Assembly: GCA_964612745.1 (NCBI GenBank)
Contig: CAZTCH010000007.1
Coordinates: forward strand, 1,327-65,326
Source: an uncultured Candidatus Saccharibacteria bacterium
Lineage (GTDB): Bacteria; Patescibacteriota; Doudnabacteria; UBA920
Direction: 5' to 3'
Length of the DNA stretch: 64,000 nt
The notes under the pieces: model-generated
Told to the model about the DNA's origin: nothing
The model's input: the letters and a program-made list of their open reading frames with translations, nothing else
The model's database searches: none
Made by a program: the position numbers and the translations under genes
Shown: piece after piece, positions 54,579-55,614 of the stretch
How positions within the stretch are numbered: position 1 is the stretch's first letter
How the letters are laid out: each line of letters begins with the position of its first letter

Positions 54579-54632
54579 TAACCCTGACACGAAACAGTCG
54601 GGATGTCGAAGACTCCAGGGGAACCCAACTTC
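54579..54632 (-). repeat. Copy 1 of an approximately 50-nt direct repeat (minus-strand sense ...UUCCCCUGGAGUCUUCGACAUCCCGACUGUUUCGUGUCAGGGUUACCCACGCCACCA)
   Basis: The plus strand gggtaaccctgacacgaaacagtcgggatgtcgaagactccaggggaa is 44/50 identical to copy 2 at 55243. Three substitutions keep a 6-bp stem pairing (CCUGAC/GUCGGG vs CCCGAC/GUCGGG, one pair via G-U wobble). It ends with a tRNA-3'-end-like ACCCACGCCACCA. Confidence 0.6.
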
Positions 54633-54694
54633 GCCAAGGCTACGTCGGGCTCAGTCGAACCCAAAAGTTCCTTCATTCATTCTTTCTCTTTCAA

Positions 54695-54728
54695 AAACAA
54701 AAGACACCCACTAAAGTGAGTGTCTTTT
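54695..54728 (-). terminator. Rho-independent terminator of the ParB-like gene (minus strand aaaagacactcac-ttta-gtgggtgtcttttgtttttg)
   Basis: A 12-bp stem with one mismatch, followed by a U-run. Confidence 0.65.
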
Positions 54729-54762
54729 GTTTGGAGCTCCATAATACGAGATGTCAGAACTG

Positions 54763-55182
54763 CTATCTGTGCAATAGATCATAGATAACTCTATCTTCAG
54801 TGTAGATAATATTGATAAATGGGGGTTTGAACTTTTTTAATGCTTCGAACGTATGATTACCATCGAGTAAGTAATAATTGCTATCAAATTTCTCACACAG
54901 TAAAACTATTTGTTCAGCCATAAATTCTTCAATGATGATTTTATCAGTAGTATCTTGAAATTTCACTACTGATTCATGATTGAGCATTTCTGGCTCAGGA
55001 CCTACGGTTCGTATAATCAATTCTGGGTTAACTTTTTCTGGACCTTTTATATTATCTTTTCGGCTTTGAATATACTTTAAAAGATTCGTATTATTAGCTT
55101 CTAAATGTTTAAAAGTATCAACTAACCATTGAGAGTAGTTTCCAACATTTTTAGCTTCCTCAATTTGTTTAACTGTTAACAT
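54763..55182 (-). CDS. ParB-like nuclease domain protein (ParB/Srx superfamily), small and stand-alone
   Basis: YYLLDGNHTFEALKK matches the ParB/sulfiredoxin DGHHR-type motif, with DGNH in place of DGHH. 139 aa. Flanked by the approximately 50-nt direct repeats. Confidence 0.6.
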   Translation of the reverse strand: MLTVKQIEEAKNVGNYSQWLVDTFKHLEANNTNLLKYIQSRKDNIKGPEKVNPELIIRTVGPEPEMLNHESVVKFQDTTDKIIIEEFMAEQIVLLCEKFDSNYYLLDGNHTFEALKKFKPPFINIIYTEDRVIYDLLHR

Positions 55183-55242
55183 GATTTCAGTATAACAAAA
55201 AATTCCCTTTAGGGAGAGTTTAATGCTGGAGCGGGTAACCCC

Positions 55243-55296
55243 GACGCGAAACGGTCGGGATGTCGGGGACTCCAGGGGAAGACCGCACTACATCTC
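55243..55296 (-). repeat. Copy 2 of the approximately 50-nt direct repeat; its minus-strand 3' end ...GGGGUUACCCGCUCCA equals the last 12 nt of tRNA-Gly(GCC)
   Basis: The plus strand reads tggagcgggtaaccccgacgcgaaacggtcgggatgtcggggactccaggggaa. Confidence 0.6.
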
Positions 55297-55305
55297 ATAA
55301 ACATA

Positions 55306-55345
55306 TAGACCTCACCGTAAAGGTGAGGTCTATATGTTTGGAGCG
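55306..55345. terminator. Perfect 17-bp hairpin (aacatatagacctcacc-gtaaa-ggtgaggtctatatgtt)
   Basis: Seen directly. It lies immediately 3' (minus sense) of the tRNA-Gly 3' fragment. Confidence 0.5.
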
Positions 55346-55358
55346 GGTAAGGGGAATC

Positions 55359-55500
55359 GACCCGCCCACGGCTATACTTATCTTCTTTCAGTCGATTCGT
55401 ATCACGCCTAACGCGGGCCCGCCACTTGTATTGCTCCAAGTATTCACAATACATCCCGATGCGACATCGGGACCGTTCCCGTTCGATTCTACCCTTCCCT
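55359..55500 (-). pseudogene. Degenerate tRNA-Gly-derived fragment / tRNA-like element (3' 22 nt identical to tRNA-Gly; upstream part not foldable as a tRNA)
   Basis: The plus strand tggagcgggtaaggggaatcga matches the reverse complement of the tRNA-Gly 3' end, ...UCGAUUCCCCUUACCCGCUCCA. One T-loop U is deleted. No matching 5' acceptor strand was found. Confidence 0.4.
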
Positions 55501-55508
55501 ACAAAACA

Positions 55509-55540
55509 AAAAATACCTACAAATGTAGATATTTTTTGTT
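55509..55540 (-). terminator. Terminator after tRNA-Gly (minus strand aaaaauaucuaca-uuu-guagguauuuuuuguuuug)
   Basis: Hairpin with one mismatch, followed by a U-run. Confidence 0.6.
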
Positions 55541-55614
55541 TGGAGCGGGTAAGGGGAATCGAACCCCTATCCCCTCCTTGGCAAGGAGGAGTTCTACCAT
55601 TGAACCATACCCGC
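55541..55614 (-). tRNA. tRNA-Gly (anticodon GCC)
   Basis: The minus strand reads GCGGGUAUGGUUCAAUGGUAGAACUCCUCCUUGCCAAGGAGGGGAUAGGGGUUCGAUUCCCCUUACCCGCUCCA, which gives a canonical cloverleaf. Confidence 0.9.

Follow-up and report, generated by a model that had tools for sequence, protein, structure and literature searches.

A variable array of small modules with tRNA-like 3' ends behind a tRNA-Gly gene of an uncultured Saccharibacteria bacterium

Introduction

The tycheposon islands of Prochlorococcus integrate serially at tRNA genes, with older elements pushed inward and partial tRNAs left behind, and serial integration at tRNA genes is likewise described for Islander-type islands. Here we analyse an interval of comparable layout in an uncultured Candidatus Saccharibacteria bacterium, contained in a stretch of 64,000 nt (assembly GCA_964612745.1, contig CAZTCH010000007.1, positions 1,327 to 65,326 of the forward strand; hereafter the window). 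The interval runs from an intact tRNA-Gly(GCC) gene to a conserved gene for a 211-aa protein, and it holds a structured repeat of about 165 nt (the A-unit), two copies of a 62-nt repeat (B-modules) and a cassette with a single open reading frame (ORF) of 139 aa, ORF139. On balance, we think it probable that this interval is an accretion site, to which small modules lacking a recombinase were added serially at the 3' end of the tRNA.

Segments without an integrase are known at tRNA 3' ends in streptococci, where cis-mobilizable elements (CIMEs), flanked by attachment (att) sites, lie in tandem and can be mobilised only in trans or together with a neighbour; they are kilobase-sized remnants of integrative and conjugative elements (ICEs) with a known integrase family. 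Small structured intergenic repeats are also familiar in bacteria, as REP/BIME, ERIC, BOX and Correia elements. An earlier note on the window, made from its letters alone, had read the interval as a ParB-like nuclease gene bracketed by 50-nt direct repeats, next to fragments of tRNA-Gly left by repeated insertion, and had proposed a comparison with relatives for empty sites and variable cargo. The comparison loci used here (numbered L001 onwards) represent one clade and were all gathered around one tRNA cluster.

Results

Modules between tRNA-Gly and the 211-aa gene

On the minus strand, four modules separate tRNA-Gly(GCC) from the 211-aa gene. In each of them a terminator-type palindrome comes first and a mimic of the tRNA-Gly 3' end comes last. 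T1 to T3 below are putative terminators, their terminator-like nature being read from the sequence (T1 also as an inverted repeat); a simple terminator scan did not flag T1-T3.

55541-55614 (-): tRNA-Gly(GCC), intact, CCA encoded, anchor of the array; called by ARAGORN and by Rfam tRNA (70.9 bits)
55503-55540 (-): T1, terminator-type palindrome right after the CCA; part of a 202-nt strain difference, not in L016/L017
55339-55506 (-): A-unit, Gly copy, about 165 nt, structured; covariance model, 136 bits
55299-55339 (-): T2, perfect 18-bp hairpin (arms 55299-55316 and 55322-55339)
55219-55280 (-): B-module copy 2, 62-nt repeat ending TTACCCGCTCCA; repeat search and fold
54732-55226 (-): ORF139 gene cassette, made of upstream block, coding sequence and right end
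55183-55226 (-): ORF139 upstream block, hairpin remnant plus candidate extended -10 TGTTATACT 6 nt before the ATG
54763-55182 (-): ORF139 coding sequence, 139 aa; ORF list
54732-54759 (-): right-end motif of the ORF139 cassette, TTCTGACATCTCGTATTATGGAGCTCCA
54732-54743 (-): tRNA-tail remnant TATGGAGCTCCA, followed by a putative terminator; overlooked by the earlier note
54692-54731 (-): T3, displaced tRNA-Gly terminator; 93% identity to the L031/L032 terminator
54624-54691 (-): spacer, about 68 nt
54562-54623 (-): B-module copy 1, 62-nt repeat ending ACCCACGCCACCA, with derived substitutions; repeat search and strain alignment
53599-54234 (-): conserved 211-aa gene, which bounds the variable interval in all relatives

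Within 54235-55540, ORF139 is the sole ORF. The terminators record the order of the array: T2 is the terminator that stands directly behind tRNA-Gly in L016 and L017, and T3 appears to be an old tRNA-Gly terminator displaced by about 800 nt, because it is 93% identical to the one directly after tRNA-Gly in L031/L032. The 12-mer TGGAGCGGGTAA, complementary to the tRNA-Gly 3' end, occurs three times as the earlier note had counted; one copy starts at 55541, and the other two start at 55227 and 55339 instead of 55236 and 55359. A longer copy of the tRNA-Gly 3' end plus AACA (29 nt, 28/29 identical) lies at 55335-55363. The intact tRNA, the perfect hairpin and the pair of direct repeats were also correctly recognised in that note; the hairpin, however, has 18 bp rather than 17, and the repeats extend over 62 nt at 85% identity rather than over 50 nt.

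Interval variation between relatives and strains

The flanks of the interval are conserved across relatives, with the tRNA Val-Phe-Gly cluster on one side and the 211-aa gene homolog on the other, and what lies between them varies in length from 457 to 2389 nt and in cargo. An empty site was found, in L008. The distance from tRNA-Gly to the 211-aa gene and the content of the interval are as follows.

L008: 457 nt, empty
L034: 629 nt, A-unit only
L032: 642 nt, A-unit only
L009: 918 nt, 150-aa gene
L027: 1144 nt, 164-aa ORF
Window: 1306 nt, A-unit, B-module, ORF139 cassette, B-module
L002: 1579 nt, ORF139 and S51 peptidase
L012: 1815 nt, cassette end, no long forward ORF
L014: 2158 nt, two reverse genes
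L028: 2389 nt, A-unit and two ORFs

Two independent assemblies, L016 and L017, are about 97% identical to the window and lack exactly T1 plus the 165-nt element (202 nt), a difference bounded by the repeat TCGATTCCCCTTACCCGCTCCAAACA, that is, by the repeated tRNA tail. The window arrangement itself is 100% identical in the independent contig L001; since the layout recurs there and the variant without the 202-nt unit is seen in two assemblies, an assembly artefact is unlikely. A second such difference affects tRNA-Leu(TAA): L007 (889-1199, compared with window 53510-53598) has an extra terminator, A-unit and tRNA tail behind this gene that are not in the window, although the two neighbouring proteins share 94% identity and both loci have the downstream terminator. 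Compared with L002 and L008, the window shows an inversion of the tRNA-Cys/tRNA-Leu(TAA) pair.

The A-unit is a structured repeat family

The earlier note had described a 142-nt tRNA-like fragment and taken it for a decaying tRNA copy. Its last 22 nt do equal the tRNA-Gly 3' end, but the element measures about 165 nt and belongs to a conserved, covarying family that is also present behind two tRNA-Leu genes. Units sit just 3' of tRNA-Gly, tRNA-Leu(GAG) and tRNA-Leu(TAA), with tails matching the host tRNA from the T-loop to the CCA; counted from the 3' end, the identity begins 17-22 nt inward, within the T-loop. One and the same core subtype is found behind all three genes, its ends host-matched each time. 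Homologs behind tRNA-Gly occur in L028, L029, L031-L033 and L034-L037, where the neighbouring protein is 56-62% identical to that of the window. Behind tRNA-Leu(GAG), L032 and L034 have one unit each and the window has three full units and one partial:

56408-57195 (+): tRNA-Leu(GAG) site, consisting of tRNA, terminator, A-unit array and terminator
56526-56678, 56679-56857 and 56862-57008 (+): full A-units in tandem, about 155-165 nt
to 57155 (+): partial A-unit ending in a tRNA-Leu 3' end with CCA

Behind tRNA-Leu(TAA), there is an A-unit in L007, and L031-L033 have a further unit whose tail is the 3' end of tRNA-Leu(TAA). In L032 (about 6710-6800, minus strand), the unit with this tail is preceded by an odd sequence ending GGTTCGAGCTGTGTTGTATAGCTCCACCA, in which ARAGORN calls no tRNA.

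A covariance model (R1) built on eight units gave 101-149 bits for full-length units outside the window and, with filters off, 110-142 bits for the four full window units. It had no further match in the window, and nine unrelated tRNA-Gly loci and 17 viral loci gave none. The viral loci are the 17 matches of a viral-contig scan with a 16-mer from the A-unit loop; the model matches none of them beyond the seed hairpin, and they are most likely due to chance. The structure is supported by covariation. In an alignment of twelve distinct units with 30 predicted pairs, standard pairs fill 90% of the pair cells, versus 39-50% when the partners are slid by 1-3 columns. Double-sided changes affect 24 of the 30 pairs, and the observed covariation score was reached by none of 500 shuffles. 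Folded alone, the Gly unit of the window takes the same shape (-62.6 kcal/mol, z -3.0), in which its 5' end pairs with the tRNA-like 3' part, with GCUCCA protruding unpaired at the end. This 5' complement is host-specific for Gly units (-25 to -38 versus -12 to -26 kcal/mol).

Known RNA classes do not account for the family. A search of Rfam 15 with A-units and B-modules gave no match at any threshold tried. As a tRNA or tRNA pseudogene the A-unit was rejected: ARAGORN predicts no gene at default settings, nothing beyond the last 22 nt matches tRNA-Gly, and Rfam tRNA has no match over 55339-55506 at E<=10. A tmRNA or permuted tmRNA, suggested by the GCCACCA end, was considered for the 165-nt element and the 62-nt repeats and also rejected, as ARAGORN reported nothing at default and noise at a 70% threshold; the Rfam tmRNA families did not match either, and no ORF or tag frame is conserved across units. 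An intron-bearing tRNA was rejected as well, being backed by low-threshold ARAGORN matches only. Compared with miniature inverted-repeat transposable elements, A-units do have inverted termini, but these vary with the host tRNA; the repeats are the 17-22-nt tRNA tail, and all copies seen adjoin tRNAs.

Some hairpins near these genes deserve mention. Within the Leu(GAG) array, on the strand opposite the tRNA, the P1 hairpin with CGCTCTTTTC scores like an intrinsic terminator (56555-56577, 56713-56732 and 56880-56897, minus strand). Related hairpins of about 40 nt that start with CCA (CCAGAC..GTCTGGCTTACGCCAC) follow tRNA-Phe and tRNA-Val at 55745-55785 and 55950-55990 (minus strand), and hairpins of the GCCTTGGCGAAG type are scattered nearby (54628-54650, 56085-56110 and 56160-56190).

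Single-gene cassettes share their ends

In L002 and L006, intact tRNA-Gly is joined directly to a block that starts at the position corresponding to window 55238; the same block is found in L003, but with an APH cassette between tRNA-Gly and ORF139. The gene orders seen in relatives are:

L003: tRNA-Gly, APH, ORF139, flank
L002: tRNA-Gly, ORF139, S51 peptidase, flank
L006: tRNA-Gly, ORF139, a different terminator, gene with a weak DUF7847 match
L010: Nudix, small ORF, Nudix, flank
L013: methyltransferase-like ORF, then an identical cassette junction

Cassettes of unrelated genes have a common left block, TCAAAAAACTCTCCCTAAAGGGGAGTTTTTTGTTATACT, which ends 6 nt before the ATG. This block combines a terminator-type hairpin with a putative extended -10 element: by consensus reading, each cassette shows TGTTATACT or TGTTATAAT six nt before the ATG, and such closeness would imply leaderless mRNAs. 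The right end, ..TCCTAACATCCTGTACTATGGAGCTCCA, is also common to them and conserved over about 28 nt. It holds a perfect 12-bp palindrome, ATGGAGCTCCAT, which is the terminal CTCCA of the tRNA abutted to its own inverse complement, so that cassette junctions read ..TATGGAGCTCCA followed immediately by TCAAAAAAC... The identity of gene cassettes with the host tRNA is confined to GCTCCA, inside this palindrome.

The ORF139 cassette has moved horizontally, since ORF139 is 71-74% identical between the window and L002/L003, and identity to the L002 homolog drops to 41% in the flanking 211-aa gene. The neighbours of ORF139 also differ between genomes. The 62-nt repeats are missing from the cassette loci of relatives, including L002, L003 and L006, and are therefore not the cassette's own ends, as the earlier note had supposed; in relatives the cassette spans from the tRNA CCA to ATGGAGCTCCA. 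A metagenome scan for the cassette junction had no match, and one for the tRNA-Gly tail returned nine unrelated loci without cassettes or A-units. Two further genes were observed in cassette-bearing loci: a 777-aa AAA_13 ATPase in the variable region upstream of the cassettes of L010 (1912-4245), and in L013 (4504-5112, minus strand) a 202-aa ORF without Pfam match, whose EGGHRIC motif is reminiscent of ParB/Srx proteins.

ORF139 encodes a small protein predicted to have a ParB/Srx fold

ORF139 is a real gene, as the earlier note had assumed, because its dN/dS is 0.16-0.18 in comparisons with homologs at dS 0.8-1.1. It has six close homologs among 5.8 billion proteins, and 54 homologs came up when 1.84 billion cluster representatives were searched with a profile. 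Searched against Pfam, in line with the profile searches (ParBc/DUF262/DndB) proposed in the earlier note, the protein matched no family at E<=1, and its best PDB profile match was SbnI at E=1.3. The structure model predicts a ParB/Srx fold, in agreement with that note. Relative to other members of the superfamily (sulfiredoxin, ParB-N/KorB, SbnI and free serine kinase), ORF139 has an N-terminal three-helix extension and no Pfam match, and the conserved Arg is replaced: DGNHT is invariant in the six homologs, with Thr where the superfamily usually has Arg (nucleotide-binding motif DGxHR / GxxR). Fusion proteins occur among the distant homologs, three with APH-family kinase domains and one with an ANT(2'') domain, and the APH gene of L003 is the cassette adjoining ORF139. 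These links make a role in binding nucleotides or small molecules more likely than DNA cutting, and the nuclease or defence role proposed earlier is unsupported.

The 62-nt repeats

The window, L001, L016 and L017 are the only sequences in which B-modules were found. A 27-nt core of the two copies was matched in none of 100 shuffles. Copy 2 folds into a hairpin (-23.3 kcal/mol, z -2.4), with an inner CCCGAC/GUCGGG stem enclosed by the pairing of CUGGAGU with the terminal GCUCCAG; in copy 1 of the window the fold is degraded and weak (z -1.2). Copy 1 of the window ends ACCCACGCCACCA, with three C>T/G>A changes, and is the derived state, because copy 1 of L016/L017 ends ..TTACCCGCTCCA. The earlier note had stated that the substitutions between copies preserve the stem. 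They are not compensatory: only one of them lies in it, and the plus strand then has G:U where the tRNA-sense strand has a C.A mismatch. The dinucleotide in GAGTC[NN]CGAC differs between copies and strains:

Window: copy 2 CC, copy 1 TT
L017: copy 2 TT, copy 1 CC
L016: copy 2 TT, copy 1 TG

This pattern across three strains points to exchange between the 62-nt copies. Copy 1 and the spacer, which follow T3, take the position held by the A-unit in L032; by eye they bear a faint likeness to the 5' part of the A-unit, which the covariance model does not detect. We regard the B-module as following the A-unit plan (inverse complement, small core, tRNA tail), its core reduced to almost nothing, and the ATGGAGCTCCAT end of gene cassettes as the same plan without any core. 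Scans of viral contigs for the 62-nt core and for the cassette junction found no match.

Genomic setting

The surroundings of the interval are of housekeeping type (infB, rbfA, gyrA, an S1-domain gene, ruvC, dnaA-dnaN-recF and rnpA-yidC). A Pfam scan of about 48 ORFs across the 64 kb of the window detected no integrase, transposase or reverse-transcriptase domain. Genes resembling LAGLIDADG homing endonucleases lie at 52644-53360 (plus strand) in the window, at about 4010-4880 in L031/L032 and at about 6917-7762 in L034-L037; the window ORF overlaps tRNA-Cys with its 3' end, and such genes could cause local breaks that drive variability. In L002, a group I intron (197-428; RF00028, 74.7 bits) interrupts the anticodon loop of tRNA-Phe(GAA), is not present in L003 or the window, and is followed by a 231-aa ORF with weak helix-turn-helix matches just upstream of tRNA-Gly. 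Far from the interval, at 17248-30924 (minus strand), seven consecutive ORFs without Pfam match, one of 2120 aa, adjoin cohesin/dockerin-like and chitobiase-domain proteins and may form a surface-protein cluster.

Discussion

We favour serial accretion of modules at the tRNA 3' end as the explanation of this locus. Each module comprises a terminator-type palindrome abutting the CCA, a payload, and a tRNA 3' end copy with its own inverse complement in front of it; because the palindrome abuts the tRNA CCA, the tRNA keeps a terminator. The payload is a structured core of about 160 nt, a single, presumably leaderless gene with a putative extended -10 promoter, or almost nothing, as in the B-module. 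The gene payloads found were ORF139 in the window and APH, Nudix, S51 peptidase and others in relatives. Insertion would be site-specific, by recombination at the tRNA tail (in the T-loop for A-units, at GCTCCA for gene cassettes), and it would be catalysed in trans by an enzyme that recognises the palindromic tRNA-tail site and is not encoded nearby. With each arrival, the modules already there and the former tRNA terminator (T3) would end up farther from the tRNA, and recombination between repeated tRNA tails would later delete, swap or re-insert blocks. A composite made in this way may be seen in the ORF139 block, which has a B-module on either side. Repeated insertion at the tRNA-Gly 3' end, already envisaged in the earlier note, is supported by the variable length and cargo of the interval; what has to be given up is the idea that the older copies are decaying tRNAs.

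Several observations weigh against accretion by insertion. Deletion between the 21-29-nt repeats would yield the same differences between strains. Junction identity of the gene cassettes is just 6-15 bp, too short to pin down the crossover site. Neither the window nor the flanking DNA of relatives yielded a recombinase; circular or free forms were not seen, and the viral-contig scans for junction and core motifs gave no real members. The specificity of the closing stem formed by the 5' complement is weak for Leu units. The tandem A-units behind tRNA-Leu(GAG) have no terminators between them, and this array consequently fits local duplication better than serial insertion. Finally, with a collection drawn from a single cluster and a single clade, the association with tRNAs may be partly a sampling effect.

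Among the alternatives, the one that survives best, which we consider unlikely though worth taking seriously, is that A-units, and perhaps B-modules, are primarily functional small RNAs, in arrays that change by unequal crossing-over without dedicated mobility. They would be transcribed with the tRNA or just after it and matured through the tRNA-like 3' end and the closing helix, for instance by RNase P or the CCA-adding enzyme. Strong covariation in eight helices speaks for this, as do the invariable position directly downstream of the tRNA and in its orientation, the roughly 80% nucleotide identity kept where the neighbouring protein is about 60% identical, the tandem Leu array free of internal terminators, and the single-sequence fold, in which a long closing helix carries GCUCCA as an unpaired 3' tail. 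However, strains about 97% identical differ in whether they have a unit, at two tRNA genes and with boundaries exactly at the repeated tail, and the same core subtype stands behind three tRNAs with host-matched ends. The functional strand is also ambiguous, with 25 G:U against about 16 A.C cells and with P1 hairpins that resemble terminators on the opposite strand. A small-RNA function is in any case compatible with the accretion model.

It is rather improbable that no dedicated insertion mechanism operates, and that breaks, natural transformation and homologous or microhomology repair make the duplications and swap the cargo. The interval would then be a hotspot between conserved flanks, in a tRNA cluster with free-standing homing-endonuclease genes, and the T-loop and the CCA-terminator palindromes would serve as microhomologies. 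The two flanks, tRNA Val-Phe-Gly and the 211-aa gene, are indeed conserved in all relatives, LAGLIDADG genes occupy shifting positions in the cluster, tRNA-Phe of L002 contains a group I intron, junction identities are short, and the near-identical 40-nt terminator-promoter blocks could support homologous exchange. Against this stand the right end of about 28 nt shared by cassettes of unrelated genes, whose perfect 12-bp palindrome looks like a recognition site, and the recurrence of the plan of inverse complement and tRNA tail in three module types and at three tRNAs.

The model of the earlier note as written (integrase-type insertions, decaying tRNA fragments, 50-nt att repeats and a mobile ParB-nuclease defence cassette) is very improbable, because, even though the 62-nt copies bracket ORF139 in the window, L016 and L017, the marker dinucleotide is exchanged among strains and the ParB/Srx fold is backed by the structure model, the cassettes of L002, L003 and L006 lack these repeats and end at the CCA and ATGGAGCTCCA, the supposed fragment is a conserved structured family, the Pfam-scanned window ORFs include no integrase, and a nuclease is unsupported (no Pfam match, DGNHT, APH and ANT fusions).

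Returning to serial accretion, a more specific and quite speculative version, which we would not expect to hold as it stands, is that the three module types are substrates of an insertion system whose recognition site is folded (hairpin or single-stranded) or RNA-guided. The 5' complement would then specify the tRNA tail to be used, and the A-unit core would be a structured RNA or DNA cofactor. If this were true, tRNA ends would be the programmed target of a new class of non-autonomous insertion modules. A resemblance of the cassette right end to a Xer/dif site, and to the architectures of IS200/IS605, IS110 bridge RNA and retron noncoding RNA, is unsupported, and no partner gene is present.

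Saccharibacteria genomes are tiny, and the locus suggests a route by which accessory genes (kinase-like, Nudix, peptidase) may be gained and lost. The genes would arrive at the tRNA tail as ready-to-express single-gene cassettes, leaving the tRNA undamaged. The A-unit, supported by covariation, without an Rfam match and with ends that adapt to the neighbouring tRNA, offers a start for finding the enzyme or the function of the RNA. Accretion of mobile modules anchored at a tRNA is the known part of this picture, and the structured repeat family, without match in Rfam or in the literature, is the new part: our literature searches found no description of A-units, B-modules or the cassettes, and no paper on mobile elements at Saccharibacteria tRNA genes.

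The locus resembles Islander and tycheposon islands in having an intact tRNA at one end, displaced partial 3' ends, older arrivals further inward and cargo that varies between strains. Judged by the features used for tRNA-targeting islands of the tyrosine-integrase type, we found an intact tRNA with a displaced 3' fragment, and both empty and occupied sites, and no internal integrase gene. The modules differ from such islands in measuring 110-500 bp and in having neither integrase nor replication gene, and also in a junction identity as short as GCTCCA and in bringing a putative terminator and, in the case of genes, a putative promoter. The accretion of integrase-less segments at a tRNA 3' end is shared with CIMEs, but these have a parent element and a known integrase family, whereas no parent element or integrase is known for the modules described here.

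Like integron cassettes, the gene modules are single genes with conserved, partly palindromic ends, arranged in one direction and in tandem at a fixed site, with the recombinase outside the cassette. Unlike integrons, the locus has no intI/attI and no attC-type site with a GTTRRRY core, its anchor is the 3' end of a tRNA, and the cassettes, in contrast to promoterless integron cassettes, appear to carry a promoter of their own, which matches the consensus. Finally, A-units share with REP/BIME, ERIC, BOX and Correia elements that they are multi-copy, non-coding, 100-200 nt long, strongly folded, sometimes in tandem and variable between strains; they are distinguished from all of these by lying, in the loci compared, only directly 3' of tRNAs, and by having both termini matched to the host tRNA.

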